From an uncultured Clostridia bacterium (GTDB lineage Bacteria; Bacillota; Clostridia; Christensenellales; Aristaeellaceae): a stretch of 64,000 nucleotides of DNA. Below the pieces are notes generated by a model. It made no database searches. It was not told the DNA's origin and saw nothing but the letters and a program-made list of their open reading frames with translations. Below, piece by piece: positions 41,348 through 56,282 of the stretch; the first letter of the stretch is position 1; every line of letters begins with the position of its first letter. Made by a program: the position numbers and the translations under genes. The DNA is taken from NCBI GenBank assembly GCA_946536315.1, contig CAMNEH010000001.1, positions 592 to 64,591 on the forward strand, written 5' to 3'.

Positions 41348-42937
41348 ATGAAAATGAAAAAACAACTGTTACACAAAATCATCCGCTGCATGGTCGTAGC
41401 GGGTACGGTGATTTGCGTGATGATCGCCACGGTCACCAACGCGCAGATCTTTTTGACGCCTGCGGGGCAGTTTCTGTCGGGCGATATTTCCTTCGATCAG
41501 ATGTCGGACAGGATCACGACGGGGTATGAGTCCGACGCGCTGTGGGAAAAAGAACGCTTTGCCGAGCTGAATGGCCTGTTTCTGCGCATGGCGGCGCGCC
41601 GCGTCGTGAACGGCGTCACACGGCTGAACAACGGAATGCTGACCTTTTCCTACGAAGCGCAGCGGATCAAGATGCCGGTGGACCGTGCCGCGCCGAAGAT
41701 CGCCCGGTTTTCCGATTATCTCAGCACGCAGGGGATTCCCTTTGTGTACGTGCTGCAGCCGGAGAAAATGGACGTCAACCATGCGCTGCTGCCCCTGGGA
41801 CTGCAGAACCACATGATTGAAAACGGGACCGACCTGCTGAGCCGCCTGTCCGAGGCCGGTGTTTTCACCGTGGACCTCCGTCAGGAGCTGGTCGGATCTG
41901 CTGAGGTTGTGGCCCGCCATTTTTACCGGACAGATCAAAGCTGGAACCCGGACGGCGCTTTCGCGGCTTACCGCGTCATCATGAACGCGCTGCAGGAGCT
42001 GGACGCGTCCGTACGGCCGGGCTTTACGGACGCCGCGCTATGGGAACGCCACTGTCAGGAGGACTGGTTCCTGGGCAATCAGGGCCAGCGCACAGGCGCG
42101 CTTTATGCGGGGCTTGATCCGATGATCTGGTATACCCCTTTGTTCGACACGGACATGCGCTGCATCATCCATGAGAATCAACAGGATTTCAGCGGGAATT
42201 ACGTACAGGCCAATCTGCGCGCCCGGTATCTCGCTCAGCGTGAATTCGGGGAAGACAGCCCCTGCTATGTGTATGTGGGCGGCGATTATTCGCATGTGCA
42301 GCATCAGAATGCGCAAGCGCCGAATCAGAAGCGGATCCTGCTGATCAAGAACACCCAAATGCTGCCGCTGCAGACCTTCCTTGCGACCGAATTCGCGGAG
42401 GTGGACGTCATCGATCCCAGGTATTACGGCGCTTCCGGTATTGCCAGATACTGCGCGATGACCCGCCCGGACTGCGTGATCATGATGGCCACTCCGGAAA
42501 ACTGCCTGACCAGCGATTATTCCGACTTTGGGGTGGACAGGGCGCAGGCGGAAAAGGCGGGCGAAAACTGGACCTCTGTGCTGGATGGATACGAGGTGAG
42601 CCTGAGCGCGGAGGATAACAATTATCATTTCGCGCAAATCCCCGTTTCACTGGCGGCAGGAAAAACGTACCGCTTCGCGTTTGACGGGCTTGAGCTGACA
42701 GCGGGTGATACCGCGGCTATCAACGCGGTGCTGTTCAGATGGAACGGCAACCGGATAATCCGGAACCATATTTACGATATCAGCTTCAGCGCCTCCGGCG
42801 GCGAACCGTGGTATTTTACGGTGCCGGAGGAGGATGAAGAGTATGCCCTGCTGGTCTATGCGGGCATCAACGGACAGACTGCCGGGAACGGCCTGCAGAT
42901 GACCGGCATCTCGGTCGCCAGAATGGAGACACCGTAA
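41348..42937 (+). CDS. DHHW-family paralog 2 with degenerate catalytic motifs
   Basis: Collinear with paralog 1 over the full length by eye. The motifs read FYRTDQSWNPDGAFAAY and LLIKNTQM instead. Confidence 0.7.
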   Translation: MKMKKQLLHKIIRCMVVAGTVICVMIATVTNAQIFLTPAGQFLSGDISFDQMSDRITTGYESDALWEKERFAELNGLFLRMAARRVVNGVTRLNNGMLTFSYEAQRIKMPVDRAAPKIARFSDYLSTQGIPFVYVLQPEKMDVNHALLPLGLQNHMIENGTDLLSRLSEAGVFTVDLRQELVGSAEVVARHFYRTDQSWNPDGAFAAYRVIMNALQELDASVRPGFTDAALWERHCQEDWFLGNQGQRTGALYAGLDPMIWYTPLFDTDMRCIIHENQQDFSGNYVQANLRARYLAQREFGEDSPCYVYVGGDYSHVQHQNAQAPNQKRILLIKNTQMLPLQTFLATEFAEVDVIDPRYYGASGIARYCAMTRPDCVIMMATPENCLTSDYSDFGVDRAQAEKAGENWTSVLDGYEVSLSAEDNNYHFAQIPVSLAAGKTYRFAFDGLELTAGDTAAINAVLFRWNGNRIIRNHIYDISFSASGGEPWYFTVPEEDEEYALLVYAGINGQTAGNGLQMTGISVARMETP

Positions 42938-42998: not shown

Positions 42999-44486
42999 AT
43001 GAAAAAAAGCAAGAAGCAAAAAGCTGCTCCTCCTGCTGCTCCGTCTCCGGTGACGGCGCTTCCGGCCGCTGCGCCGGACCTGCGGGCTGACCGCCCCGCT
43101 GGTCAGCTGATATCGTGGCGGAAGGTCGCGCTGTTCATCGCCATATGCTGGCTTCCCTTTTTTGTCTACACCATGCCGGGCAATATCGCCTGGGATACGG
43201 GCGCAGGGATCGGCCAGTTTATGAAGATCGGAGCTGAGAATCCGAACAACCCGTATTTCCAGAATTATCTGATGGGCGCGTTCTGCTACTTCGGGCGGTT
43301 GGCCGGCAATACCAATCTCATGGTGCTGCTGTACTGTCTGCTGCAGACTGTCGCAGAAATTCTGGTGCTCTCCCGCATCATCGCGCGCGTGGGGGAGCAC
43401 AGCCGCGTCGCGGGCTACATCCTGCTGGCGTTTTACTGCTTCGTGCCGACCGTGCCGATCTACGCGATGACGATGGGCAAGGATTCCAACCTCGCGGTCG
43501 CGGTGCTGTTGTACCTGGCCTGCGCGCTGCAGGCGATGCGCGATGACGCGTACTGGAAAGAGGAACGCCATGAAACGCTGTTTGCATCCAGCATCCTGCT
43601 GATGACGCTGTTCAGGAATCATGCGGGCTGGGTACCGGCCGTGGCGTTTGTCCTCTACACGATCTTTGCGGTCCGGCAAAAGCGGCTGGTGCTTCACTCC
43701 CTGGCAGTGCTGGGCGCGGTGGCCATGCTGTCCGTGGGGCTTCCTGCGCTGCTGGATATCCCGAAAGTGGAGATCAAGGAAAGCCTGACGGTGCCGATGC
43801 AGACGATGGCGTACTTCATCAAGACGCGGCCGGAAGACCTGACCGATGAGGAACGTGGGATCATCACGCAGGTCATCGACATCGACCGGATGATGCGGCA
43901 TTATGATCCGAACATCGTCGATTCCATGAAGAAGCGCATGGTCCTGGACGAAAAGACGACCGGGCCGTTTCTCCGCCTGTGGCTGCGCAAATGTTTCCAG
44001 CATCCCCTGACTATGCTGCAGGGCATGTATCAGAGCACGTATATCTATTTGATCCCGACGGAGCGAAGCGCCAACAAGGGACAGGCGACGGTGGGCTATG
44101 ACATCAGCGAGGAGGTGAAGGAAAAAATGAACATGTACAATGACAACCCGAACGTCGTCCGGATTAAAAACTATCTGAAGCGCTGGATCAACGCGCCCGT
44201 CCTGGGCCTGCTGGTGAGGATCGGGCTGTTTTCCTGGCTGCTTGCGCTGCTGGTGATTCTGATCTTCGTGTTCCGCCGGCCGCGGTACCTGTTATGCGCC
44301 GCGCCGCTTCTGACGATCTTCATTGGCTGTCTGCTTTCGCCCCTTAACGGCTACTACCGCTACGCCCTGTCCATGATCGTCGGCGTGCCCGTCGTGCTGG
44401 CTGACCTGCTCAGCACGGTGACGGCCAACCTGCGCTTCCCGCCGATCAGGCGGCGCGTCAGGAACACGAGCCCCGCCGGGAGGTGA
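42999..44486 (+). CDS. polytopic membrane protein, possible GT-C-like glycosyltransferase (function unassigned)
   Basis: 495 aa. Lys/Pro/Ala-rich N-terminus followed by 10 or more hydrophobic helices. Loop motifs include NIAWDTGAG and YAMTMGKDSN. Confidence 0.45.
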   Translation: MKKSKKQKAAPPAAPSPVTALPAAAPDLRADRPAGQLISWRKVALFIAICWLPFFVYTMPGNIAWDTGAGIGQFMKIGAENPNNPYFQNYLMGAFCYFGRLAGNTNLMVLLYCLLQTVAEILVLSRIIARVGEHSRVAGYILLAFYCFVPTVPIYAMTMGKDSNLAVAVLLYLACALQAMRDDAYWKEERHETLFASSILLMTLFRNHAGWVPAVAFVLYTIFAVRQKRLVLHSLAVLGAVAMLSVGLPALLDIPKVEIKESLTVPMQTMAYFIKTRPEDLTDEERGIITQVIDIDRMMRHYDPNIVDSMKKRMVLDEKTTGPFLRLWLRKCFQHPLTMLQGMYQSTYIYLIPTERSANKGQATVGYDISEEVKEKMNMYNDNPNVVRIKNYLKRWINAPVLGLLVRIGLFSWLLALLVILIFVFRRPRYLLCAAPLLTIFIGCLLSPLNGYYRYALSMIVGVPVVLADLLSTVTANLRFPPIRRRVRNTSPAGR

Positions 44487-45037
44487 ATGCGCTGCGTATC
44501 TGGAAGGATATCCTGGCACAGGGACAGTACCTGTTCCGGGCTGGATTGGTCACGGCACTGATTCTTCTGGCCTCCGTGCTTTATCCGGACGGGCGGAGCG
44601 GCGCGGGGCAGCGCCTCAGGCGCCTGTTGAAGCGGCCGTGGCGGATCGCGTTCGCGTTTTATTGCGTGTTCATTCTGACCAGCACGGTCCTGGGCCGTTC
44701 GTTTGTCAATCCGACCGAGCACGTGCTCACCCATTTCGGATTCACACATCAGGGCGCGTTCAACGACCAGCTGGTGGAAAACATCCTGTTCTTCATTCCA
44801 CTGACGTTTTTTTACCTGAACGCGTTCCCGGTCCGGCACCCGTTCAGAAACGCGCTGCAGCTGTCCGTGGGTATGACGCTGCTGGTGGAAATGTGCCAGC
44901 TGCTGGGCAGGCTGGGGGAATTCCAGCTGGCGGACATGGCGCAGAATATCGTTGGCGGGCTGCTCGGCTGGGCGCTGTGGCGCCTCACCCGGATCCTGTT
45001 TCCGTCAGGTCGTTCCTCACGCGAAAACGGTTTGTAA
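44483..45037 (+). CDS. VanZ-like family membrane protein
   Basis: The GTG overlaps the upstream stop (GTGA). ENILFFIPLTFF and EMCQLL...LADMAQNIVGGLLGW resemble VanZ-family helices. Confidence 0.65.
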   Translation: MNALRIWKDILAQGQYLFRAGLVTALILLASVLYPDGRSGAGQRLRRLLKRPWRIAFAFYCVFILTSTVLGRSFVNPTEHVLTHFGFTHQGAFNDQLVENILFFIPLTFFYLNAFPVRHPFRNALQLSVGMTLLVEMCQLLGRLGEFQLADMAQNIVGGLLGWALWRLTRILFPSGRSSRENGL

Positions 45038-45064
45038 ATGTGGCCGCCGCGCAGACGGATTTTC

Positions 45065-45093
45065 TTGACAGACCGGAGGATTCTTAATATAAT
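45065..45093 (+). promoter_or_regulatory. consensus SigA promoter of the RiPP operon
   Basis: TTGACA (45065-45070), exactly 17 nt, TATAAT (45088-45093). GGAGGG RBS at 45107-45112 lies before the TTG start at 45123. Confidence 0.8.
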
Positions 45094-45122
45094 TTGACTG
45101 TGAGCCGGAGGGATGAGGAAGC

Positions 45123-45599
45123 TTGCGCGATTACGCAACCGTGCGCACGATGCCTGCAGCGCAGTACTTTGCGCTGGTCAGGCAGTCGCTTCAGGATACG
45201 GGGCAGGCCTATGTCCGCGTGACGGGCGCCAGCATGCGCCCGCTGCTCAGGCACAGGCGGGACGGGGTCATCCTCGGACGGCCGGAAACGCTCCGCCGGG
45301 GCGATATCGTGCTGTTTGACCGCGGTGACGGCCGCTACGCGCTGCACCGCGTGATCCGTCTGCGGCCGACCGGGTTTGATATGGCCGGCGATCATCAGCG
45401 CAATGTCGAAACCGACCTGCCGTATGCGCAGGTCGTCGGTGTCGTGACCGCCGTTGATCGGGGCGGACGCCGTATCTCCCGTTCAAACTTTTTTTTTCAA
45501 TTATTGGCGTTTTTACTGCCACGTCTCGCGGAGCTGCGTATCAATGTACGGAAGGCGCTGACGGCAGGCCGGAGCCTTCTGAAGCGCGGACGGGCATGA
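45123..45599 (+). CDS. S26-family peptidase of the Ser-His (SipW/Sec11-like) type
   Basis: 158 aa. GASMRP carries the nucleophile Ser. GDIVLFDRGDGRYALHRVIRL matches the GDI..F...HR(V/I) box of ER/archaeal-type signal peptidases. No clear N-terminal TM anchor. Confidence 0.65.
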   Translation: MRDYATVRTMPAAQYFALVRQSLQDTGQAYVRVTGASMRPLLRHRRDGVILGRPETLRRGDIVLFDRGDGRYALHRVIRLRPTGFDMAGDHQRNVETDLPYAQVVGVVTAVDRGGRRISRSNFFFQLLAFLLPRLAELRINVRKALTAGRSLLKRGRA

Positions 45600-45606
45600 A
45601 AGGATC

Positions 45607-45879
45607 GTGCGCATGCGAATTCGACCGGGATATGTTCTGCGTCAGGTCATGGACATGTATGTTGTCGTGGGCGTGGGGAGCGAAACATACCGCCCAAACC
45701 AGATCATGAGTCTCAATGAGACCGGCGCGGCGCTCTGGCGTAAGCTGGAGCAGGGGGCTGACACGCAGACGCTCATCCGCAGCCTGACAGAGGAATTTGA
45801 AGTGGACCCTGTCACAGCCGGGAACGATCTGAACGCCTTCCTCACCCAGCTGCGCGAGCACGCGCTGATCGACGAATGA
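45607..45879 (+). CDS. PqqD-like RiPP recognition element protein
   Basis: 90 aa. LNETGAALWRKLEQGADTQTLIRSLTEEFEVDPVTAGNDLNAFLTQL is typical PqqD-family sequence. The stop overlaps the rSAM start (ATGA). Confidence 0.8.
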   Translation: MRMRIRPGYVLRQVMDMYVVVGVGSETYRPNQIMSLNETGAALWRKLEQGADTQTLIRSLTEEFEVDPVTAGNDLNAFLTQLREHALIDE

Positions 45880-47024
45880 GGGAAAAGGTCTGGCAGCCGG
45901 ACCGGATTGCCGACCAGCTTCAGATGCGGGCGATCCGCCTGCGCCGTCCGCTGAGCTGTACGCTGGAGCTGACCTGCCACTGCAACTTTCACTGCGTGAT
46001 GTGCTACATCCGCATGAATGAAGCGCAGGCGGCGGCCCATGGCCGGATGAGGACGCCGGAGGAGTGGCTGGACATGGCCCGGCAGCTCAGGGAAGCGGGC
46101 GTACTGTACCTGCACCTGACCGGCGGGGAGTGCACCCTGTACCCGGGGTTTGAGCGCCTGTACGCGAGGCTTTCGGAGATGGGCTTCAGACTGAGCGTGA
46201 TGAGCAACGCGGGAGCCTATACGGACAGCGTGCGCCGGGTGTTCACCCAGTATCCGCCGCTCAGCGTGGCGGTCACGCTGTATGGCGGCTGCGCGGCGAC
46301 CTACGGCCGGGTGACCGGCGACGCCGGAGGCTTTGACAGGGTCGTGGACAATATCCGCTTCCTGCAGTCCGCCGGGATCCCGGTGACCGTCAACTTTACC
46401 ATGATCCGGCAGAACGCGCAGGATTATCCAAAGGTGGCTGAACTGTGCCGTACGCTGGGCATCGCGTTCACGCTGAACACGGACATCACGCCCCATCGGT
46501 ATGACGCCTCGTATTCCGATGCGATGCGCTGCTCTCTGACCCCGGCGGAACGGGCGTGTGTCGCATGCCACTCCCCTTCTGAGGTGGACATTGCCCTGAA
46601 CGCGGCCAAGACGCTCGAACAGGAGCTGTCGCATTTCACGCCTCCGCAAGGGCCCGCGGGCGTCCTGCCCGAGCAGGAGGCCTGCATCGCCGGCTCCGCA
46701 GGCTGCGCGATCGCCTGGAATGGCGACATGCAGACCTGCGTCTCCCTGAACGCATGGCAGAGCGTGAAGCCGTTTGAAATCGGCTTTGAGGCCGCCTGGG
46801 CGCAGCTCAAAGCCGCGCAGGACAGGACGTTTGCGCGCCCGAGCGTATGCGCTCAGTGCGAAATGCGGACAGACTGCGATCACAACTGCCCCGGCAGGCG
46901 GTTCGAAGGCACGGGGAATATCCACACCCCCGACCCGCGGGTATGTCAGTACACGTACCTGCTGAGGCTGTACCGCGCCAGGCGCGGCACGGTGTCCACG
47001 CCAGGCACGCCCGGCTGCGTCTGA
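45876..47024 (+). CDS. radical SAM enzyme with C-terminal SPASM domain (peptide maturase)
   Basis: CNFHCVMC (Cx3Cx2C) lies near the N-terminus and is followed by a GGE motif (LTGGECTL). The C-terminal SPASM pattern is CIAGSAGCAIAWNGDMQTC ... CAQCEMRTDCDHNC ... VC. Confidence 0.9.
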   Translation: MREKVWQPDRIADQLQMRAIRLRRPLSCTLELTCHCNFHCVMCYIRMNEAQAAAHGRMRTPEEWLDMARQLREAGVLYLHLTGGECTLYPGFERLYARLSEMGFRLSVMSNAGAYTDSVRRVFTQYPPLSVAVTLYGGCAATYGRVTGDAGGFDRVVDNIRFLQSAGIPVTVNFTMIRQNAQDYPKVAELCRTLGIAFTLNTDITPHRYDASYSDAMRCSLTPAERACVACHSPSEVDIALNAAKTLEQELSHFTPPQGPAGVLPEQEACIAGSAGCAIAWNGDMQTCVSLNAWQSVKPFEIGFEAAWAQLKAAQDRTFARPSVCAQCEMRTDCDHNCPGRRFEGTGNIHTPDPRVCQYTYLLRLYRARRGTVSTPGTPGCV

Positions 47025-47079
47025 GCGTCCCGCCGCTGCCCTGATCCGGATGAAGACCGTACCACAGGAGGAATCATCC

Positions 47080-47262
47080 ATGAGAAAAAAGTATGTCGCG
47101 CCGAAACTGTTTGTCGATGTATACGCTGCGGACACCATGATCGCTTCGGACGACCCCACCCCGGTGTTTGAAGCCAAGGAAGGCAATCCGAACAATCAGA
47201 ACTGCTATGGCTATAAGGACATTCCCGGGGCGTTCGTAGACGGCAACATCTGCATCATGTGA
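47080..47262 (+). CDS. candidate RiPP precursor peptide A (60 aa, no GG site)
   Basis: AGGAGG (47066-47071) lies 8 nt before the ATG. Sequence: MRKKYVAPKLFVDVYAADTMIASDDPTPVFEAKEGNPNNQNCYGYKDIPGAFVDGNICIM. It has two Cys (C42, C58) and sits directly after the rSAM gene. Confidence 0.55.
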   Translation: MRKKYVAPKLFVDVYAADTMIASDDPTPVFEAKEGNPNNQNCYGYKDIPGAFVDGNICIM

Positions 47263-47266
47263 CGGG

Positions 47267-48103
47267 ATGACCTGTACGTTTGGCCGCTATGCGCTCGACA
47301 TCGGAGGTTTTCCGGAAGCGCTTCACTCCATCTCCGCGTCATGGAAGGACTACGTGGGTCAGACGGGAGTATCGCCGCCTGACGCTCGGCTCACGCTGCT
47401 GACCGCGCCGACAGCCCCGGATGAACGGACGGACGGATGGTATGCGTCAGCGGGAGAAGCGGAAGAGCTGGAAGTGACCTGCGTACGGGCCGGCCAGCGC
47501 CTGTTCACGCTGCGTTATGGCGGCGAGAGGGGCAAAGTGACGCTGATCGCCGACGAAGCGCGGCCAGGGAGCGTTCGCCTGGGCCTGCGGTACGGCATGC
47601 TGCTGGCCCTGCGAAAGACCTGTCTGGGCCTGCACGGTGTCACCCTGCTGTGCGGGAATGAGGTGGTGATCCTCTCCGCGCCCAGTGGGACCGGCAAAAC
47701 GACGCTGGCTTCGCTCCTGGAGCGGTATGAGGACGCCATTGTGATCAACGGCGATTTCGCGCTGCTTACGCCGGCGGAGGATGGTCTCTGGTTTGAACCC
47801 ACGCCCTTCTGCGGTACGTCACACAGGTGTCTGAACGTTCGTACGCGGGTGCACCGGATCGTTTTCCTGGGCCAGTCGCCTGTGAACGTCTGGCGGACCC
47901 TGGACGCGCGGGAAGCCGCCCTCTGTCTGCTGAGCAACGCATTCGTCCCCGAGTGGGACTTGTCCGCACAGCAGACGCTGCAGGAGCACGCGCTGCGCTG
48001 CATATCCCTTGCGCGCATGGACCGGTTTGACTTCGCGCCGACCCGTGAGGCGGCCGGGATCGTGATTCATCAGCAACTGCATGAAGAGCAATCTTCTCAG
48101 TAA
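47267..48103 (+). CDS. HprK C-terminal-domain-like P-loop protein (putative peptide kinase)
   Basis: 278 aa. LHGVTLLCGNEVVILSAPSGTGKTTLASLL resembles the HPr kinase/phosphorylase catalytic P-loop region. Confidence 0.65.
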   Translation: MTCTFGRYALDIGGFPEALHSISASWKDYVGQTGVSPPDARLTLLTAPTAPDERTDGWYASAGEAEELEVTCVRAGQRLFTLRYGGERGKVTLIADEARPGSVRLGLRYGMLLALRKTCLGLHGVTLLCGNEVVILSAPSGTGKTTLASLLERYEDAIVINGDFALLTPAEDGLWFEPTPFCGTSHRCLNVRTRVHRIVFLGQSPVNVWRTLDAREAALCLLSNAFVPEWDLSAQQTLQEHALRCISLARMDRFDFAPTREAAGIVIHQQLHEEQSSQ

Positions 48104-48123
48104 TAAAACATGGAGGTGTCAAC

Positions 48124-48360
48124 ATGGAGTTCAAACAACCGACCAGCCAGGCTGAAATGGATGCCCTGCGCAAGAGCCTGCGCCAGAAGCTCGACGATGC
48201 TGACCTCGAAAACGTGGTCGGCGGCAATGACGACGTCAAGGGCAAGGGGAATCCCACCCCCTGGACCTGCCTGTGGTGCGGCCAGACGTTCATGCTGAAA
48301 AAGCTGCAGGACGCCGCCAAGCACTGCGCGCATGACTGCCCGAAGAATCCGTACAAGTAA
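48124..48360 (+). CDS. double-glycine-leader precursor peptide B (78 aa; 44-aa Cys4 core)
   Basis: GGAGG lies 7 nt upstream. The leader ends LDDADLENVVGG, with hydrophobics at -4, -7 and -12. Core: NDDVKGKGNPTPWTCLWCGQTFMLKKLQDAAKHCAHDCPKNPYK. Confidence 0.75.
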   Translation: MEFKQPTSQAEMDALRKSLRQKLDDADLENVVGGNDDVKGKGNPTPWTCLWCGQTFMLKKLQDAAKHCAHDCPKNPYK

Positions 48361-48375
48361 TCGACCGGAGGTCTT

Positions 48376-48399
48376 GCCTGGCAGTTTGTTCTGCCAGGC
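48376..48399 (+). terminator. hairpin (attenuator-like) after precursor B
   Basis: GCCTGGCAG-TTTGTT-CTGCCAGGC is a perfect 9-bp stem followed by a weak T-tract (tgcctttc). Confidence 0.45.
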
Positions 48400-48429
48400 T
48401 GCCTTTCATGTGAAGTTGCTCTCAGACCG

Positions 48430-50139
48430 ATGTCAATGATAAACTATCTGGCGAAAATCAAGTCCATCCTCAAAGGCCGCACGCTGCCGGATATCGTCCG
48501 CTGGACCAGGCCGGTCCATGCGATGCTGCTGTGGCTGAGCGTTCTCAACGTGGTGAGCTCGCTGCTCTCGCTGGGCGTGACGCTGGTGACACGGGAGCTG
48601 ATCGACGGCGCAGTCAGCGCGAACGCGAATGCGCTCACACGCTACGGTGTGATGCTGGCAGCGCTGATCATCGTCATGCGCGTGCTCGATGTATTGTATT
48701 CCGGCCTGCGCAGCCGCGCCTCTGTCCGGCTGCAGCGGGAAATGCAGCGCATGATCACACAGGCGGTGCTTTCCAGGGAATATGCTTCGCTGAAATCCTA
48801 CCACAGCGGCGACCTGATCAACCGAATCTTTTCGGATGCGGAGGTGGTCAAGAACGGCGTCATCAACACGCTGGCGGGCATCATCAATACCCTGGTCAGC
48901 TTTATCGGCGCCGCGATCATCCTGATTTCCATGGACTGGCGCTTTGTGCCCGTGCTGATCCTGGGCGGACTGATCGGCGTCGTGATCACGCTGCTGTTCC
49001 GAAATCCCATGAAGCGCCGTCACACGCGCATGCAGGAGGCGGAGAGCGCGCTGCGCGCAGGCACGCAGGAAACGCTGGAAAGCCTGCGCGTCGTCAAGGC
49101 CAGCCTCTCAGAAGCGCGCGTAATGCGTCAGCTGGAGGACAGCCGTGAGCGCCTGAGCCTGGAACAGCTGCGCAACGCCCGCCTGAGCATCGCCATGAAC
49201 AACGGAATGGGTGTCCTGTTTGACGTGTCCTGGCTGGTGTGCAATCTATGGGGCTGCGTCAAGATTTACCGCGGTGAGTTCACCTACGGCGGCCTGGCCG
49301 CCATGATCCAGCTGATCGGCCGGATTCAGGCGCCGATCGCGTCAGCAGTCCAGATGGCCAGCCAGATCTACGGTGTGCTGGCGTCGGCAGAGCGTCTGCA
49401 GGAGGTCATTGGCCTGCCTGAGGAGCCGAACACGGGCAAAATCAGTTCGTTTGACCGGATCGCGCTCGAGAATGTTTCGTTCCAGTATGAGGATGGTACG
49501 GATGAGGTTCTGCTCAACGTCACCGCAAGCATCCGGCGCGGAGATTTTATCGCCCTGACCGGGCGGTCCGGCGGTGGAAAAACCAGCCTGTTCCACCTGC
49601 TGCTGGGCCTTTACCGCCCGACGCACGGCGCGGTGGTCTTTGAATCCGGCGCCGAGCGGATACTCGCCGGTCGGGGCACCCGGGCACTGTTCGCCTATGT
49701 GCCGCAGGGCAACACGCTGTTTTCCGGTACGCTTCGCGAAAACCTGACGCGTTTTACCGACAGCGCGTCGGATACGGAGGTCATTGCCGCGGCGAAGGCT
49801 GCCTGCATCGACGACCTCGTTGCGGAAATAGGGCTGGACGCCGTTCTGGGAGAACATGGTGTCGGTCTGTCAGAGGGCCAGGCGCAGCGGGTGGCGGTGG
49901 CGCGCGCCTTGCTCAGCCGGGCGCCGATCCTGCTGCTGGACGAAGCGACCTCCGCGCTGGATGAGGCGACGGAAGCGAACATGCTGACCAATATCGGCCG
50001 CATGCGCGATAAAACGGTCCTGATTGTGACGCATCGCCGCGCGGCACTTGACATTTGCGACGTTCGGTGGCATATTGAGGAGGGACGGATGTCCGTCACG
50101 CGCCTTGCGCGGCATTCTGACGATGGGGGAAGCATGTGA
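48430..50139 (+). CDS. ABC exporter, fused permease/ATPase (no peptidase domain)
   Basis: 569 aa. Six-TM domain, Walker A GRSGGGKTS, signature LSEGQAQRV, Walker B ILLLDEATS. Confidence 0.85.
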   Translation: MSMINYLAKIKSILKGRTLPDIVRWTRPVHAMLLWLSVLNVVSSLLSLGVTLVTRELIDGAVSANANALTRYGVMLAALIIVMRVLDVLYSGLRSRASVRLQREMQRMITQAVLSREYASLKSYHSGDLINRIFSDAEVVKNGVINTLAGIINTLVSFIGAAIILISMDWRFVPVLILGGLIGVVITLLFRNPMKRRHTRMQEAESALRAGTQETLESLRVVKASLSEARVMRQLEDSRERLSLEQLRNARLSIAMNNGMGVLFDVSWLVCNLWGCVKIYRGEFTYGGLAAMIQLIGRIQAPIASAVQMASQIYGVLASAERLQEVIGLPEEPNTGKISSFDRIALENVSFQYEDGTDEVLLNVTASIRRGDFIALTGRSGGGKTSLFHLLLGLYRPTHGAVVFESGAERILAGRGTRALFAYVPQGNTLFSGTLRENLTRFTDSASDTEVIAAAKAACIDDLVAEIGLDAVLGEHGVGLSEGQAQRVAVARALLSRAPILLLDEATSALDEATEANMLTNIGRMRDKTVLIVTHRRAALDICDVRWHIEEGRMSVTRLARHSDDGGSM

Positions 50140-50846
50140 GGACGTTTATCATCGGCGATATTCACGGCTGTGATAAGGCGCTGAACCGGCTGCTGATCCG
50201 GCTCAGACCGCATGAGGACCGTGATCAGCTGATTCTGCTGGGCGATTTGTTTGACCGCGGCCCGGACGCCTGGGAAGTGTTCCGGACCGTCAGACAGCTG
50301 GCGGACGCGTACGGCGAGCGCTTTGTCCTGATCCTGGGCAATCATGAGGATTTCCTGATGAGGGAGAAGCTCTCGCTGATGGAGCGCATGACGTGGAATC
50401 GCGTCGGCCGCCTGACGACGGTGCGCTCGTTCAAAGCGCACGGCGATGATCCGGCGTCTGCGATTCCCTGGCTGAAAGCGCACGCGCAGCTGACCTACCG
50501 CGACGAGCGCGTACAGTGCGCTCACGCGGCCGTCCGCGTCGAGCCTGTCGAGGCGAATGATCGTCAGACGCTGGTGCACGACCATCATACGCTCGTCGAA
50601 AACAGCTACGCGGGGCGGTTGACCGTCACCGGACATATGGCGCTGGAGGCGCCGACCTGGTTCGCCGGTGATCGCGAGACGGCGGAACAGATTCCGTACG
50701 GCGAATGGCGGCCCCTGCCGCAGCGGGGCGTGCTGTGCATAGATACCGGTTGCGGCAAGGGCGGGCGATTGACCGGGATGCAGCTGGAAGAGGACCCGGA
50801 CAGCGGCGCGCTGCGTTACCGGCTGGAGCGGGCGAAAGAAGAATAA
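50136..50846 (+). CDS. PPP-family metallophosphoesterase (Ser/Thr phosphatase / ApaH-like)
   Basis: The GTG overlaps the ABC stop (GTGA). Motifs: GDIHGC, GDLFDRGP, GNHE. Confidence 0.85.
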   Translation: MRTFIIGDIHGCDKALNRLLIRLRPHEDRDQLILLGDLFDRGPDAWEVFRTVRQLADAYGERFVLILGNHEDFLMREKLSLMERMTWNRVGRLTTVRSFKAHGDDPASAIPWLKAHAQLTYRDERVQCAHAAVRVEPVEANDRQTLVHDHHTLVENSYAGRLTVTGHMALEAPTWFAGDRETAEQIPYGEWRPLPQRGVLCIDTGCGKGGRLTGMQLEEDPDSGALRYRLERAKEE

Positions 50847-50864
50847 AAAAATCTTTCGGTTTTT
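50833..50864 (+). terminator. weak AT-rich terminator candidate
   Basis: CGAAAGA (50833-50839) pairs with TCTTTCG (50852-50858), followed by GTTTTT. It overlaps the stop codon. Confidence 0.35.
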
Positions 50865-51026
50865 CCTGCCATCCTGCCCCGGGGCGCGTATATAGTATTG
50901 GAATGAGTCCATCGGACATTCCACCGAGCGGAACAAAACGCCGCAGGACGGCTGTTCCGTGCCGATGGCGCTCTGCTCCGGAACAATGTTTGCAAAGTCC
51001 AACATCTTTTAAAGGAGGATTTGACC

Positions 51027-51251
51027 ATGGCACGCGTACAGCTCAACGACAATCAGCTGGAACAGGTTTCCGGCGGCGCTTTCAACTTCTACAAGAAGGA
51101 TGACCAGAACCAGTGCTACGTGGACGGTATGGGCACCTTCAACTGCAGCGCGGATGCGTCCAACTGGGTGCTCCAGCGCATGGCGACCACCGGCGCGCCG
51201 GTGTCCACCGTGATCGCGGAAGCGGTGGAAAAGGGACTGTTCTGGAAGTAA
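51027..51251 (+). CDS. double-glycine-leader bacteriocin precursor C (74 aa; 57-aa core)
   Basis: AGGAGG (51013-51018) lies 8 nt before the ATG. Leader: MARVQLNDNQLEQVSGG. Core: AFNFYKKDDQNQCYVDGMGTFNCSADASNWVLQRMATTGAPVSTVIAEAVEKGLFWK (C13-x9-C23). Confidence 0.8.
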   Translation: MARVQLNDNQLEQVSGGAFNFYKKDDQNQCYVDGMGTFNCSADASNWVLQRMATTGAPVSTVIAEAVEKGLFWK

Positions 51252-51330
51252 TCCGACGCTGATGCCCGCCTGACGCGGACACACCGTTCAGGCCGCATCG
51301 TATTCATGCCACAGTTAAAGACGCGTCTCA

Positions 51331-51382
51331 CCTCTCAGCCTTTCGGGGTTTCCCGCGAAGGCTGGGAGGTTGTACTGTTTTC
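51331..51382 (+). terminator. long imperfect hairpin plus T-rich tail after precursor C
   Basis: CCTCTCAGCCTTTCGGGG...CCCGCGAAGGCTGGGAGG pairs over about 17 bp with bulges, followed by TTGTACTGTTTTC. Confidence 0.6.
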
Positions 51383-51405
51383 GGCCAATCAAAAAGGAGC
51401 TTTCT

Positions 51406-51894
51406 ATGCAGGATCAGCAGAAACCCAAACTGTTTCGAGAAAAAAGCCTCGAGGCGATTGAGTCGCCTGAGGCGCTGAATGATTACCTTCGCGTCACTTC
51501 CCCCGGGGTCTGGCTGGTGATGGCCGCTGTGATCACGCTGCTGGTCGGGCTGCTTCTGTGGAGCATCCTGGGACGCATCGACACCACGATGCGCGTGGCG
51601 GTCGAGGCAGACAATGAGCGCACGGTTTGCTATGTGCCATACGACGCGCTGCAAAAGATGAAGGATGAAGGCAAGCTGACCATTGACGGGAAGGAGTATT
51701 CCCTGCAGCTCGGCGGTGAAGCCAGCGTGGTCATCGTCTCGGAGGAAACAAATCCCTATCTTCGCGTGGCGGGCGGCCTGCAGCTGGGGGATGTGACCGT
51801 GCAGGTGCCGGTCGCGGCGTCCCTGGCCGAGGGCGTATACTCAGGTACGATCGTGACGGACCGCCTTCAGCCGATCACGCTGCTGATACAGTGA
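51406..51894 (+). CDS. short HlyD-like secretion adaptor (NHLM-system type N-terminus)
   Basis: RBS AAGGAG is present. LFREKSLEAIESPEALNDYLRVTSPGVWLVMAAVITLLVGLLLW matches the N-terminus plus TM of bacteriocin-system HlyD adaptors, but the protein is only 162 aa. Confidence 0.6.
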   Translation: MQDQQKPKLFREKSLEAIESPEALNDYLRVTSPGVWLVMAAVITLLVGLLLWSILGRIDTTMRVAVEADNERTVCYVPYDALQKMKDEGKLTIDGKEYSLQLGGEASVVIVSEETNPYLRVAGGLQLGDVTVQVPVAASLAEGVYSGTIVTDRLQPITLLIQ

Positions 51895-54086
51895 GGGAGG
51901 GGAAACGCGTGGCTCGAAAACCAAATATTCCCCGTCCGGTTGAAAAAGGGTTTGTCCGGGTGCCGGTGGTCATGCAGCTGGAGACGCTGGAGTGCGGCGC
52001 CGCTTCGCTGACAATGGTCATGCATTACTACCGCAAGTGGATCCCCCTGGAACAGGCGCGCGTGGACTGCGGCGTGTCCATGAACGGCGCGAACGCGAAA
52101 AACATCCTCGCCGCCGCGCGAAGCTACGGCATGAAGGCAGACGCCTGGGGCCTGGAGGCGGAAGACCTGCCGGACCAGGGGCCGTTTCCGTGCATCATCC
52201 ACTGGGGATTCAATCATTTTGTGGTCCTCTGCGGCTTTCAGGGCAAGAAGGCGGTCATCAACGATCCGGCGCGGGGGAACGTGGTGGTCGACTGGGAAGA
52301 GTTTGACAGGGAGTTCACCGGCGTCTGCATCACGCTTGAGCCGGGGCCGGATTTCGTGCCCTCCGGAAAACCGAAGACCGTCATGGATTACGCGCGCGAG
52401 CGCCTGAAAGGGTCCGGCGCGGCGGTGACGTTCGTCGTTCTGACGACGACCATTTCGTCACTGATCGGCATCATTCAGCCGGCCTTTGCGCGGACCTTCC
52501 TGGACCGGCTGCTCACCGGACGGAATCCGGAGTGGCTCCGCCCGTTCATGCTGCTCTTTTCACTGCTGATTCTGGTCAGCATTGTCACGTCCTGGATTTC
52601 CGCGGTCTATTCCCTGCGTATTCAGGGCAAAATGGCATCCTATGGCAGCGCGTCGTACCTGTGGAAGGTGCTCAGGCTGCCGATGCAATTTTTCAGCCAG
52701 CGCATGTCGGCGGACATTGCGGACCGGCAGGCGACCAACGCGTCCATCGCCGGCACGATGGTCGAAACCTTCGCGCCGCTGGCGCTTCAGGCGCTGATGA
52801 TGGTGTTTTACCTGGTCGTCATGGTCAGCTACAGCCCGCTTCTGTCGGCGGTCGGCATCGGCGCGATCGCGCTGAACCTGCTGGTCTCTGCCATGGTGAC
52901 CAGGCGCCGCGTCAATATCACGCGCGTCCAGCAGCGTGACGCCGCCAAGCTCTCGTCAACCACCATGTCCGGCATCAGCATGATCGAGACCATCAAGTCC
53001 AGCGGCGCGGAAAACGGCTTTTTTGAGCGCTGGGCGGGATATCAGGCGAGCGTCAACACGCAGTCGGTCCGGTTCACCCGGCTGAATCTGTTTTTAGGTT
53101 CCCTGCCGCAGGCCATCACGACCATCGCCAATCTGGCCGTGCTCGGTCTGGGTGTGCTGCTCGTCCTGCGCGGCGAGTTCACTGTCGGTATGGTGATGGC
53201 CTTCCAGACCTTCCTTTCTTCGTTCATGTCCCCGGCGACGTCGCTGATCACCGCGGGCCAGTCGATGCAGGAAATGATCACGCAGATGGAGCGTGTGGAC
53301 GACGTGATGAGCTATCAGGAGGATCCCACGTTCGCCCCGCGCCCCAAGACCGGCGAATACCAGAAGCTGTCCGGCGCGGTCGAGCTGAAGAACGTGACGT
53401 TCGGCTATTCCCGGCTGGATAAGCCGCTCATCACTGACTTTTCCATGACGCTCAAGCCGGGACAGAAGGTTGCCTTTGTCGGCAGGACGGGCTGCGGCAA
53501 GTCCACCCTGGCCAAGCTGATCTCCGGATTGTACCAGCCCTGGAGCGGTACCGTCACATTTGACGGCGTCCCCCTGCAGGAAATAGACCGGAACGTGTTT
53601 ACAGGCTCCGTTTCCGTCATCGATCAGGACATTACGCTGTTCGAGGACACGATTTCCGAAAACATCCGGATGTGGGACGGTTCCATTGAAGACTTCGAAG
53701 TAACGCTGGCGGCGCGCGACGCGGGCATCTATGACGATATCGTGACCCGCGACGGCGGGTTTACGCACCGGCTGCTGGACGGCGGACGCGACCTGTCCGG
53801 CGGGCAGCGGCAGCGCCTGGAAATCGCGCGCGCCCTTGCGCAGGATCCGACCATCTGCATCATGGACGAGGCGACCTCGGCGCTCGACGCCAGGACGGAG
53901 CATGAGGTCATCCGCTCCATCAACGACCGCGGCATTACCTGTGTGATCATCGCGCACCGCCTGTCCACGATCCGCGACTGCGACGAGATCATCGTGCTGG
54001 ACAAGGGCAAAATCGTCGAACGCGGGACGCATGAGGAACTGTACGCCAAGGGCGGGCTGTATGCCAGCCTGGTGAGCAACGAGTAA
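51891..54086 (+). CDS. bacteriocin ABC exporter with N-terminal C39 peptidase domain
   Basis: The GTG overlaps the upstream stop. QLETLECGAASLTMVMHYY carries the C39 catalytic Cys region. Also has a six-TM domain, Walker A GRTGCGKST, signature LSGGQRQRL and ICIMDEATS. Confidence 0.9.
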   Translation: MREGKRVARKPNIPRPVEKGFVRVPVVMQLETLECGAASLTMVMHYYRKWIPLEQARVDCGVSMNGANAKNILAAARSYGMKADAWGLEAEDLPDQGPFPCIIHWGFNHFVVLCGFQGKKAVINDPARGNVVVDWEEFDREFTGVCITLEPGPDFVPSGKPKTVMDYARERLKGSGAAVTFVVLTTTISSLIGIIQPAFARTFLDRLLTGRNPEWLRPFMLLFSLLILVSIVTSWISAVYSLRIQGKMASYGSASYLWKVLRLPMQFFSQRMSADIADRQATNASIAGTMVETFAPLALQALMMVFYLVVMVSYSPLLSAVGIGAIALNLLVSAMVTRRRVNITRVQQRDAAKLSSTTMSGISMIETIKSSGAENGFFERWAGYQASVNTQSVRFTRLNLFLGSLPQAITTIANLAVLGLGVLLVLRGEFTVGMVMAFQTFLSSFMSPATSLITAGQSMQEMITQMERVDDVMSYQEDPTFAPRPKTGEYQKLSGAVELKNVTFGYSRLDKPLITDFSMTLKPGQKVAFVGRTGCGKSTLAKLISGLYQPWSGTVTFDGVPLQEIDRNVFTGSVSVIDQDITLFEDTISENIRMWDGSIEDFEVTLAARDAGIYDDIVTRDGGFTHRLLDGGRDLSGGQRQRLEIARALAQDPTICIMDEATSALDARTEHEVIRSINDRGITCVIIAHRLSTIRDCDEIIVLDKGKIVERGTHEELYAKGGLYASLVSNE

Positions 54087-54101
54087 AGGGGGGAGAAGTT
54101 C

Positions 54102-56282
54102 TTGGGGTGGTTTGACGAACAAATTGAATACAGAAAGAAGTATGAACGGGAGCTTCTCAGCGATTCCCTGGAGAATATCGCCCGGTCTGTCACCGGCCGC
54201 CGCATCGTCAGCGCGTTCAGGGATGACGCGGACGTCAGCGACGCAGTCTCCGCGCTGCTCAAGCATCTCGGCGTGAAGGAGAAGGAAGTCCCCGCCAACA
54301 TCAGCGGGCTGCAGGATAAGCTGGATTATCTGCTCTCCTCCACGGGCATCCTGTACCGTGAGGTCAAGCTGACCAAAGGCTGGCACGCGGACGCGATGGG
54401 CGCCATGATCGCGACGCTCAATGACGGCGCTGTCATCGCGGTGCTGCCCTCCGACCTGGGCGGCTATGAGTATACCGATCCCAAAACCGGCCAGCGCGTC
54501 CGTGTGAATGCCAAGCAGGAGGACAATATCAGCCGTGAAGCGCTGTGCTTCTACCGCCCGCTGCCTTTGCGCGCGCTGACGATCCGGGATCTGCTCAAAT
54601 ACATGTACAGCTGCCTGACGGTCCGCGACCTGGTCAGCTTTGCGCTGGCCGCCCTGGCGATCACGCTGGTCGGCATGCTGATGCCCAAGCTGAACCAGAT
54701 CCTGATCGGGCCGGTGATCTCCTCGGGCAGCGAACGGCTGCTGCTGGCGGTCATGCTGTTCATGCTGTTCGCTTCGATCGGCAGCATTCTGATCGCCATC
54801 ATCCGCGCCCTGCTGCTCAACCGCATCCGCTACAAAATGAATGTGGATGTGAGCGCGGCGACCATGATGCGCATCCTTTCGCTGCCGACGTCGTTCTTCA
54901 AGCTGTATTCCGCCGGCGAGCTGAACCAGTACATCAGCTACATGGACAGCCTCTGCACGACCATTGTGAATTCCGTGTTTTCCACGGCGGTGACCGGCGT
55001 GTTCTCACTGGTGTATCTCGGCCAGATCTCCGCGTTCGCGCCGAGCCTGGTATGGCCCAGCCTGCTGGTCACGCTGCTGACGCTGGGGGTCAGTCTGCTC
55101 TCCGCTTCGGTGCAGATGCGCATCGATTCGGAAAAAATGGTATACAGCGCGAAGGAGCGCGGCTTGGTTTACTCGCTGATCACGGGCATACAGAAAATCC
55201 GCCTGAGCGGCGCAGAAAACCGCGCCTTCAGCAAGTGGTCCCAGACGTATGTCCGCAGCTCTGAGCTGACGTACAATCCGCCGGCCATCATCCGTCTGTC
55301 AGCGGTCATCACCACGGCCATCTCGATGATCGGGACGGCGGTGGTCTATTATGTGTCTGTCCGAAACGGCGTGAGCGTGGCGGATTATTATGCGTTCAAC
55401 TCCGCGTACGCGTATATCTCCTCCGCATTCTCGTCGCTGGCCGCCATGGCGCTGTCCGCGGCGTCCATCCGACCGATCATTAAAATCATCGGGCCGTTCC
55501 TGGCCGCCGTTCCTGAAACCGCGGATGCCCGGGAAACGGTGACGCGTCTGTCCGGCAGCATCGAGCTGTCGCACGTGACCTTCGGGTACGATCCGGAGAG
55601 CAAGCCGCTGTTCGAGGACTTCTGCCTCACCATCCCGGCGCGTCAGTACGTGGCCATCGTCGGCCGGAGCGGCTGCGGCAAGTCCACGCTGGTGCGCCTG
55701 CTGCTGGGCTTTGAAAAACCCTCGCGCGGCGTCATCAACTATGACCGCAAGGACCTGCAGCGCCTGGACCTGCGCTCGCTGCGCCGCCAGATCGGCACGG
55801 TGATGCAGGATGGCCGGCTCTTCTCCGGCAGCATCTTTGACAATATCGTCATCTCCGCGCCGACGCTAAAGCTGGAGGACGCATGGAAGGCGGCGGAAAT
55901 CGCCGGGATCGCGGACGACATCCGCGACATGCCCATGGGCATGAACACCATCCTCCAGGAAGGCGGCGGCACGATCTCCGGCGGTCAGCGCCAGCGGCTG
56001 ATGATCGCCCGCGCGATCGCGCCTAAGCCGAAAATCCTGATTTTCGACGAGGCGACCTCAGCGCTGGACAACATCACGCAGAAGAAGGTCTCAGAGGCGC
56101 TGGACACCATGAAGTGCACCCGCATCATCATTGCGCACCGCCTCTCCACGATCAAAAACTGCGACCGGATCCTGGTGATCGACGGCGGAAAGATCGCGGA
56201 GGATGGCACCTACGAACAGCTGATGGCCAGGAACGGCATCTTTGCTGAGCTGGTCGAGCGTCAGCAGCTGGGTAACAAGTAA
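54102..56282 (+). CDS. partner ABC exporter with degenerate (Cys-less) C39-like N-domain
   Basis: 726 aa. The N-terminal ~150 aa lack the QxxxxCG motif. Walker A GRSGCGKST, signature ISGGQRQRL, ILIFDEATS. Confidence 0.85.
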   Translation: MGWFDEQIEYRKKYERELLSDSLENIARSVTGRRIVSAFRDDADVSDAVSALLKHLGVKEKEVPANISGLQDKLDYLLSSTGILYREVKLTKGWHADAMGAMIATLNDGAVIAVLPSDLGGYEYTDPKTGQRVRVNAKQEDNISREALCFYRPLPLRALTIRDLLKYMYSCLTVRDLVSFALAALAITLVGMLMPKLNQILIGPVISSGSERLLLAVMLFMLFASIGSILIAIIRALLLNRIRYKMNVDVSAATMMRILSLPTSFFKLYSAGELNQYISYMDSLCTTIVNSVFSTAVTGVFSLVYLGQISAFAPSLVWPSLLVTLLTLGVSLLSASVQMRIDSEKMVYSAKERGLVYSLITGIQKIRLSGAENRAFSKWSQTYVRSSELTYNPPAIIRLSAVITTAISMIGTAVVYYVSVRNGVSVADYYAFNSAYAYISSAFSSLAAMALSAASIRPIIKIIGPFLAAVPETADARETVTRLSGSIELSHVTFGYDPESKPLFEDFCLTIPARQYVAIVGRSGCGKSTLVRLLLGFEKPSRGVINYDRKDLQRLDLRSLRRQIGTVMQDGRLFSGSIFDNIVISAPTLKLEDAWKAAEIAGIADDIRDMPMGMNTILQEGGGTISGGQRQRLMIARAIAPKPKILIFDEATSALDNITQKKVSEALDTMKCTRIIIAHRLSTIKNCDRILVIDGGKIAEDGTYEQLMARNGIFAELVERQQLGNK

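Follow-up and report, generated by a model that had tools for sequence, protein, structure and literature searches.

A double-glycine-leader peptide with a predicted C2HC zinc-finger core in a two-peptide radical SAM cassette of Clostridia

We analysed a 64,000 nt stretch of DNA from an uncultured Clostridia bacterium of the Aristaeellaceae (contig CAMNEH010000001.1 of assembly GCA_946536315.1; hereafter the window), considering a 78-aa peptide, here called peptide B, that accompanies a radical S-adenosylmethionine (radical SAM) enzyme and another small peptide, peptide A. Peptide B is a real, ribosomally made prepeptide with a bipartite leader and is always linked to the cassette. We read it as a double-glycine-leader prepeptide whose exported 44-aa core would be a C2HC zinc finger, the second peptide of a two-peptide radical SAM cassette, and we put the chances of this interpretation at about even.

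Peptide B and its predicted zinc-finger core

The peptide B gene (48124-48360, + strand) opens with an ATG, 7 nt downstream of the Shine-Dalgarno sequence GGAGGTG, and its 78 codons give a 78-aa product. Translation agrees with an earlier note, made from the letters of the DNA, which had proposed a genuine open reading frame (ORF) with a 34-aa leader ending in LENVVGG and a Cys/His-rich 44-aa core. The leader (48124..48225) reads MEFKQPTSQAEMDALRKSLRQKLDDADLENVVGG and combines an N-terminal F-K-x-P-T-S box, a predicted helix (residues 9-19) and the double-glycine box L(-12) D(-8) L(-7) V(-4) G G. The core (48226..48360 with the stop codon) reads NDDVKGKGNPTPWTCLWCGQTFMLKKLQDAAKHCAHDCPKNPYK and starts with NDD and a Lys-rich linker, followed by a predicted beta-beta-alpha C2HC finger. 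The core spacing given in the same note, C49-x2-C52-x3-F56-x4-L61-x5-H67-C68-x-H70-x-C72, is exact in the translated ORF.

Among 5.8 billion proteins, a word-indexed search picked out 13 homologues of peptide B at 55-100% identity; run exhaustively against 1.84 billion cluster representatives, HMMER recovered 44 of them at E<=1e-3, including 21 at E<=1e-10. The family is genuine but rare. Where traceable, its sources are mostly rumen or ruminant-gut metagenomes and metagenome-assembled genomes (MAGs), and among GTDB species representatives a profile search of genome contigs found the peptide in only two MAGs, RUG10690 (uncultured Clostridiales) and RGIG5986 (Clostridia, sheep omasum). The ratio of nonsynonymous to synonymous substitution rates (dN/dS) is 0.25 between the window and L005 and 0.13 between L010 and L016 (L numbers denote compared loci, P numbers proteins) and is low in leader and core alike; the gene is under purifying selection. 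Because homologues exist, dN/dS is low and a stem-loop recurs at the same position after the gene, peptide B is beyond a chance ORF. Two long multi-repeat matches from the representative search, P0043 and P0055, were rejected as SPNGGE-W repeat proteins and are not relatives of B. The same search returned P0048 (308 aa), an Asn-rich low-complexity protein that matched no Pfam family and contains three tandem copies of a similar module, QWVC-x2-C-x13-H-x3-C-P-x-N-P; judging from it, the B-type finger may also occur outside the radical SAM cassette.

Only four columns are invariant in an alignment of 39 sequences (37% mean column identity), those of C49 (48268-48270), C52 (48277-48279), H67 (48322-48324) and C72 (48337-48339), and a core-only alignment singles out the same four. 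Across the family the ligand pattern is CxxC-x14/15-H-x3/4-C, set within the signature aromatic-x-C-x2-C-G-x2-hydrophobic ... D-x2-K-H-x3/4-C-P-x-N-P. Conservation reaches at least 90% for L28, G33, G34 and D63, and the invariant core residues of the 13 closest sequences are W47, C49, C52, D63, K66, H67, C72, P73 and N75; among these 13, C68 changes to M and H70 falls in a one-residue deletion. Family-wide, C68 and H70 are restricted to the subclade of the window, with M or L at the C68 position in most members. The Cys4/His2 pattern of the earlier note is thus not a family trait, and the conserved site is C2HC.

This bears on one of the options raised there, a CxxC...CxxxC helical hairpin, by which B would be an unmodified class II-type bacteriocin with disulfides from C49/C52 to C68/C72 and no metal. 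The window copy does have four Cys in that arrangement, and a membrane thioredoxin-like gene follows B in many loci, but the proposal is contradicted at family level. It was rejected because C68 is not conserved; three is the commonest Cys count, found in most members, which therefore do not have all their Cys in disulfides, and the even conserved number that two disulfides call for is not seen. H67, moreover, is invariant, and the window and L005, the loci with a four-Cys B, lack the thioredoxin-like gene, whose presence tracks the Cys count of A. We regard a two-disulfide peptide B as very improbable.

For full-length peptide B, AlphaFold2 predicts the leader helix, a disordered segment (22-41), two strands (45-48 and 55-58) and a helix (61-71), with a predicted local distance difference test score (pLDDT) of ~80 in the core. 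Modelled alone with 36 sequences, the core reaches a mean pLDDT of 93.9, with every one of the five models above 92. The CxxC sits between the strands, H67 lies within the helix and C72 just beyond it. A beta-beta-alpha C2HC zinc-finger fold is the high-confidence prediction for the core. Taken qualitatively, the Foldseek matches listed from the PDB are mostly zinc fingers, superposing at 1.4-2.3 A over 25-34 residues. The best are RNF125 (TM-score normalised to the query, TMq, 0.61; 1.5 A over 31 residues) and Cep104 (0.60; 1.6 A over 30), and further ones are U1 snRNP chain 4pjo_L (1.4 A over 25), Sgf73 and MYST fingers. The core profile 'tpWtCpfCGqti...qDaaKH' also aligns, over knuckle and helix start, to the consensus finger 'KPYKCPECGKSF...SDLQKH'.

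Neither peptide B nor any of 48 family members matched a Pfam or NCBIfam model above its cut-off; the sub-threshold Pfam matches to the core are nearly all to zinc-binding families, and eight members match DUF3222 weakly. The canonical C-x2-4-C-x12-H-x3-5-H spacing is not found, since x14-15 stands here and the fourth ligand is Cys, and matches to Pfam models of the zf-C2H2 type are sub-threshold only. What B shares with zinc fingers are four invariant ligand positions and, as a prediction, the beta-beta-alpha fold. Of the three options in the earlier note the zinc finger is therefore the best supported, given these ligands, the model confidence and the superpositions, although as a C2HC and not a C2H2 finger.

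An iron site was also considered, in which B would be a rubredoxin-like mini-protein giving electrons to the radical SAM enzyme. W-x-C-P-x-C-G is a rubredoxin knuckle too, and weak rubredoxin matches were obtained, but B carries a double-glycine export leader, its second half-site is H-x3/4-C and not CxxC, and it is absent from related cassettes with the same enzyme type. We judge this idea scarcely credible.

Leader, export and gene fusions

The double-glycine leader, as the earlier note had recognised, is genuine and conserved: at least 90% of members carry L(-7) and GG, positions -12 and -4 are hydrophobic, and the residues concerned in the window copy are L23, D27, L28, V31, G33 and G34. 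This consensus (-12, -8, -7, -4, -2, -1) is kept across very divergent members, while the leader is otherwise variable. Its unusual length, also pointed out previously, is borne out by an extra conserved N-terminal box (hydrophobic-K-x-P-T-S) and the helix, which a plain class II leader lacks. Against curated leader models (TIGR01847 bacteriocin_sig, PF10439 and others) the window peptide gave no match at E<=0.1. Seven other B sequences match TIGR01847 (best E 0.029) and five match PF10439 (best 0.042), all weakly and taken as sub-threshold, and the sub-threshold matches of the family as a whole comprise CTB bacteriocin, XyeA, TIGR04149, bacteriocin_sig and type-A/II lantibiotic leaders.

A C39 peptidase-ATP-binding cassette (ABC) exporter, or PCAT, is linked to B in four gene arrangements (window, L005, L031 and L040). 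With its HlyD-like component it follows the cassette in the window and L005; in L031 and L040 it precedes the cassette in divergent orientation, and no double-glycine-leader ORF other than B was found there. Since this linkage survives rearrangement, the gene order suggests that B is a cargo of the linked exporter.

Several fusions involve B. P0041 (L013 656-1033) is a single ORF joining an A-type leader box (YEAPTL), a GG box, a B core and an A core (NQNCW...C); on its one 1.8-kb contig it immediately follows a radical SAM gene and is followed by a VanZ-like gene, a ScmC-like gene being absent from between them. The ScmC-like protein of the cassette runs in frame into B in P0026, P0046, P0053 and L040 (7307-8437), and P0032 joins an S24-like peptidase to B. 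The P0041, P0032 and L040 fusions each come from a single contig or a single representative. An internal Met precedes the B part in the ScmC-like and S24-like fusions, from which B may also be translated separately. Judged from their architecture, the fusions argue for a functional tie of B to A and to the cassette enzymes.

These fusions can also be read differently, with B as a cytoplasmic zinc-finger accessory or regulator, for example one that serves the ScmC-like protein or the peptidase as an adaptor, or that binds DNA or RNA through its Lys-rich linker, and the GG region as a mere linker. Besides the in-frame fusions and read-throughs with ScmC-like and S24-like proteins, the domain-like conservation of the core, the Lys-rich segment ahead of the finger, the members without GG and the several loci without a linked C39 exporter would all suit such a role. 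It is nevertheless hard to reconcile with a GG-box consensus that persists even between remote members whose leaders otherwise differ, or with a PCAT linked in four arrangements, two of which have B as the sole double-glycine-leader ORF. P0041, furthermore, places the B core behind a GG box alongside an A core, and the L095/L097 copies have acquired two Cys, one immediately behind GG and one at the C-terminus, as fits a processed, exported peptide. A cytoplasmic role thus appears improbable to us.

The L095/L097-type subfamily (L095 1432-1698 and L097 138-410; P0063-P0066, P0054, P0057, P0039 and P0051) has a short leader with the Cys directly after GG, a linker of 25-35 residues, a CCHC finger and the extra C-terminal Cys. 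The linker is Ser/Lys/Gly-rich in most members and His/Gly/Lys-rich in P0039 and P0051. The two extra Cys suggest that the processed peptide may be linked end to end.

The radical SAM cassette, the hairpin and neighbouring genes

A radical SAM-based scan of JGI metagenomes gave 80 loci. The cassette order in L001-L011 is SipW-like peptidase, PqqD, radical SAM/SPASM enzyme, peptide A, ScmC-like protein and B. The B hidden Markov model matches every close locus (radical SAM enzyme 53-72% identical) whose contig extends past the ScmC-like gene and none of ~50 distant human-gut loci (31-33% identical). Two more divergent lineages carry B with a radical SAM gene: L014, ordered B, radical SAM, A, A, ScmC-like, with part of the cassette duplicated, and L095/L097, ordered radical SAM, A, ScmC-like, B, thioredoxin-like.

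Peptide A (47050..47262, + strand; probable start M11 at 47080) reads MRKKYVAPKLFVDVYAADTMIAS..NNQNCYGY..ICIM in the window, with a KKY-x-x-P-x-L leader, and matched no family model. Its 24 unique homologues all share the leader MKKY-x-A-P-x-L-F-V-D-x-F-A-x-D-T-M-I-A-S and the NNQNC(W/Y) motif, whereas the C-terminal part is hypervariable and Cys-rich; B, unlike A, is conserved in both leader and core. In close loci the A gene is always directly 3' of the radical SAM gene. Because of this position, the KKY-x-x-P-x-L leader and the hypervariable Cys-rich core, A is probably the true substrate of the enzyme and a better candidate than B.

A membrane-anchored thioredoxin-like protein (YYFYKDYCP-x-C) is encoded after B in most loci (e.g., L001 8318-8926, L010 10301-10858, L097 474-1019). 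Among loci with a complete A, peptide A has 4-5 Cys where this gene is present and 2 Cys where it is absent (window, L005, L040). Its presence tracks the Cys count of A and not that of B, a pattern which argues that the Cys of B do not depend on disulfides.

B might still be a second radical SAM substrate. Its leader box would then dock PqqD or the radical SAM enzyme, and C49, C52 and perhaps C72 would enter a sactionine, a non-alpha thioether or another Cys/His/Trp cross-link before cleavage at GG, the finger fold being at most a transient pre-organisation. The conserved hydrophobic-K-x-P-T-S box of the 34-aa leader resembles the aromatic-x-x-P motif of A (Y-x-x-P-x-L), and in P0041 one A-type box, replacing that of B, precedes both cores. 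The leader also weakly resembles those of XyeA (11 members) and TIGR04149 (10 members), both families of radical SAM targets. The rumen clade has B together with a discrete PqqD; in the distant human-gut clade neither was detected. B lies upstream of the radical SAM gene in L014 and L030.

The earlier note had further pointed to a likeness with the N-terminus of the sactipeptide thurincin H. The shared W-x-C-x2-C is real, but the four donor Cys of thurincin H stand at positions 4, 7, 10 and 13 and are bridged to residues 19-28 (PMC8172795); B conserves only two at that end. An invariant His whose distances to three Cys are fixed marks a metal site rather than thioether donors and acceptors, the acceptor side has no thioether-like pattern, and the core has a high-confidence beta-beta-alpha model. 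Each cassette has a single radical SAM gene, and peptide A has the classic precursor anatomy and position. Sactionine formation on B by the adjacent enzyme, as the note had envisaged, is accordingly kept as the main rival reading but not favoured, A being the better candidate substrate; we rate modification of B as unlikely, although worth keeping in view.

The leader likenesses just described, and several further observations, weigh against B as an exported zinc-finger partner of A. Plain unmodified class II bacteriocins need no such extra leader box, and its presence suggests that some cassette enzyme may dock on B too. GG is missing from P0028, P0030 and P0040, the L030 copy reads VVGN, and no C39 exporter was seen in the compared locus sequence of L001/L011, L008, L010, L016 and L017. 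The core is conserved like a folded domain and does not diversify as a typical antimicrobial core. Most distant human-gut loci keep the ScmC-like, S24-like and ABC genes and an A-like peptide without B or a detectable PqqD; since these cassettes keep their enzymes without B, the peptide is an addition to the cassette, and the core chemistry does not dictate what it does. As to the fold, every Foldseek E-value for either model exceeds 1, as expected for a 37-residue query, hence the qualitative use; PDB profile matches of the core are significant only when summed over repeated fingers; and we infer Zn binding from models that contain no metal.

For B as an exported C2HC finger, we propose the following scheme. 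The linked C39 peptidase-ABC exporter would cleave the prepeptide behind G34 and export its core, a 44-aa product made of a Lys-rich tail and a finger in which C49, C52, H67 and C72 would hold one Zn(II). Outside the cell this product would join radical SAM-modified A in a bacteriocin-like or signalling pair, of which B would be the second component. A bolder version makes the Zn(II)-binding core the obligate extracellular partner of modified A, a metal-stapled, redox-insensitive bacteriocin or signal that would suit the anaerobic rumen; we offer it tentatively and on balance find it doubtful.

Directly after B lies a hairpin (48376..48399, + strand), with arms GCCTGGCAG (48376-48384) and CTGCCAGGC (48391-48399) forming nine perfect pairs around the 6-nt loop TTTGTT and with a weak T tract. 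The 76-nt intergenic RNA folds at -28.7 kcal/mol (z = -2.97; 0/200 shuffles fold as well). The position is conserved in homologous loci: a stem-loop stands right after the B stop codon in seven, with stem sequences that differ or are extended and with weak T tracts, for example GCCTGACAG/CTGTCAGGC in L005 and TCAGACCGCCA/TGGCGGTCTGA in L014.

The perfect 9-bp stem of the earlier note thus stands, but not the role it had been given in setting precursor-to-enzyme stoichiometry. Termination alone was rejected as a means of setting that ratio, the radical SAM, PqqD and peptidase genes all lying upstream of B. A consensus scan of 44500-52000, in which a match is no proof of function, gave one promoter-like site upstream of B (TTGACA-17-TATAAT, 12/12 matches; 45065..45093, + strand), just 5' of the first cassette gene. 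With the enzyme genes upstream and this sole site, termination would therefore lower the downstream transporter genes relative to the cassette. The hairpin is a probable partial terminator or 3'-end stabiliser, which would end or stabilise the biosynthetic transcript and cut read-through into the transporter genes.

The remaining cassette genes, like all genes given below as features of the window, are on the + strand. The first encodes an S24/S26 peptidase resembling SipW/ER-type signal peptidases (45123..45599), with motifs SM-x-P-x-L and H-R-V and matches to Peptidase_S24 (E 1.2e-4) and sigpep_I_arch (E 2.6e-5) that are both below cut-off; it also comes first in the close (rumen) loci whose contig reaches that far, and its orthologues in L001-L040 are 45-60% identical. 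It is followed by a PqqD-family peptide chaperone, or RiPP (ribosomally synthesised and post-translationally modified peptide) recognition element (45607..45879; Pfam PqqD E 2.6e-17, above cut-off; best NCBIfam matches to lasso-peptide PqqD chaperones). Next comes the radical SAM/SPASM peptide maturase (45876..47024; Pfam Radical_SAM E 1.8e-20), whose matches to NCBIfam models of the ScmE, SkfB, PqqE and MftC type are far below their equivalog cut-offs.

Between A and B lies a ScmC/HPr-kinase-related P-loop protein (47267..48103) with the Walker A motif SAPSGTGKTT and a weak NCBIfam HprK_rel_A match; a fused homologue matches both ScmC and HprK_rel_A, and only P-loop matches were found in the PDB. 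The protein is related (tblastn E 6.7e-6) to an L011 stretch that matches the PF27840:ScmC gene 5' of the cassette in L001. In L001 (7453-7983), as in L002-L004 and L011, the ScmC-like gene separating A from B is interrupted by an in-frame stop, and its N-terminal third is not recognisable. This variant is the most often recovered (n=24 contigs), with a second PF27840:ScmC gene ~7 kb upstream.

Downstream of the hairpin are an ABC exporter (permease and ATPase) without a C39 peptidase domain (48430..50139; orthologues in L005, L010 and L040) and an ApaH/PrpE-like metallophosphoesterase (50136..50846), which co-occurs in L005 and L010. A second double-glycine-leader peptide, unrelated to B and with an orthologue in L005, follows (51021..51251; MTMARVQLNDNQLEQVSGG|AFNFYKK..., core AFNFYKKDDQNQCYVDGMGTFNC...). 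It has its own export module (51370-56282), also kept in L005, which starts with an HlyD-like adaptor of the NHLP type (51370..51894; TIGR03794 E 1.4e-8, below cut-off). The C39-peptidase ABC exporter, the candidate leader peptidase and exporter for B, comes next (51891..54086); its motifs ECGAASL and NHFVVL are intact, and PF03412 Peptidase_C39 was matched by the 87%-identical L005 orthologue. Sequence and locus comparison place a second ABC subunit at 54102..56282. The second double-glycine-leader peptide is missing from L031 and L040, which keep the exporter.

On the other side, a VanZ-like membrane protein gene adjoins the cassette in three locus types (window 44483-45037, L005 1895-2452, L013 1121-1678) and could have an immunity function. 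Further upstream are two tandem paralogous large ORFs with an N-terminal membrane helix (39386-41335 and 41348-42937); a similarly placed 527-aa gene in L005 has ALGX and DHHW Pfam matches. Together with a glycosyltransferase-like ORF (38748-39755), the tandem ORFs appear to belong to the cell envelope and to have no relation to the cassette. Scans of the entire window for Rfam families and tRNAs gave no match. In human-gut contigs L044-L094 (e.g., L051 3778-11347) an A-like peptide (MKKQYRKPEIAIEDF...) occurs with ScmC-like, radical SAM, S24-like, ABC exporter and PHP-like genes.

Comparison with known systems

In PMC and bioRxiv full text we found no description of the B family or of its cassette of radical SAM, PqqD and ScmC-like genes, and no report of a small exported bacterial peptide built on a zinc-finger fold. 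Small exported bacterial peptides are known to be stabilised by disulfides, thioethers, lasso folds or head-to-tail cyclisation, and zinc fingers are rare in bacteria. If B is a secreted zinc-stapled peptide, it would add a structural principle to bacteriocin and RiPP biology and a compact, genetically encoded, redox-independent scaffold, and it would define a two-peptide radical SAM system with an unexplored ScmC-like P-loop enzyme. If the radical SAM enzyme instead cross-links the Cys/His site of B, the chemistry would probably be new. Under either reading the cassette is compact and amenable to heterologous expression.

With other peptides of the double-glycine-leader/C39-ABC type (class II bacteriocins, XyeA triceptides, TIGR04149 radical SAM targets) B shares the hydrophobic -12/-7/-4 positions, acidic -8, GG, a linked PCAT/HlyD-like module and a maturation cassette. 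It differs in falling below every family cut-off, in its extra N-terminal box and in its C2HC-finger core, a conserved feature that we know of in no member of these families. Beta-beta-alpha zinc fingers (1MEY, RNF125 8GBQ, MYST 6CT2, U1 snRNP 4PJO_L) have in common with B the aromatic-x-C-x2-C-G-x-x-hydrophobic segment, then a helix with the His and a fourth ligand one turn on. Compared with classical fingers, B has 14-15 residues and not 12 from the second Cys to the His, a Cys as last ligand and a P-x-N-P cap, and it is a single, bacterial finger on an export leader that no Pfam zinc-finger model matches past its cut-off.

The best PDB match of the full-length profile is 2JS3 ('Uncharacterized protein'), in which residues 56-80, CKLCGASVPWLQTGDEIKHADDCP, show the spacing CxxC-x14-H-x3-C, identical to that of B, along with its D..KH...CP motif, at an E-value (0.14-0.15) that is not significant. 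The entry is absent from the 50 Foldseek matches listed for either B model; it presumably belongs with DUF3222.

Sactipeptide clusters typically comprise a radical SAM/SPASM enzyme with a RiPP recognition element, ABC export and a thioredoxin-like gene (PMC8172795). As in the systems of thurincin H, subtilosin A, thuricin CD and SKF, B has an adjacent radical SAM/SPASM enzyme with such an element, a W-T-C-x-x-C core start and ABC genes, and a thioredoxin-like gene in some related loci. B conserves two N-terminal Cys, the His and a C-terminal Cys, in place of the clustered donors of thurincin H. The window enzyme reaches none of the sactisynthase models SkfB (69.8 bits vs 300), AlbA (38.7 vs 850) and StsB (42.4 vs 625).

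A likeness in gene content is found in orphan cassettes that combine radical SAM, PqqD and HPr-kinase-related genes (SynChlorMet ScmC/D/E/F, HPr-rel-A, GeoRSP). The triad of a SPASM radical SAM enzyme, a discrete PqqD and an HPrK/ScmC-related P-loop protein is shared, with scores far below the equivalog cut-offs of ScmE (73.8 bits vs 400), ScmD (14.5 vs 100) and HprK_rel_A (14.2 vs 200). Beyond this triad, the window cassette has a SipW-like peptidase and the two defined peptides A and B.

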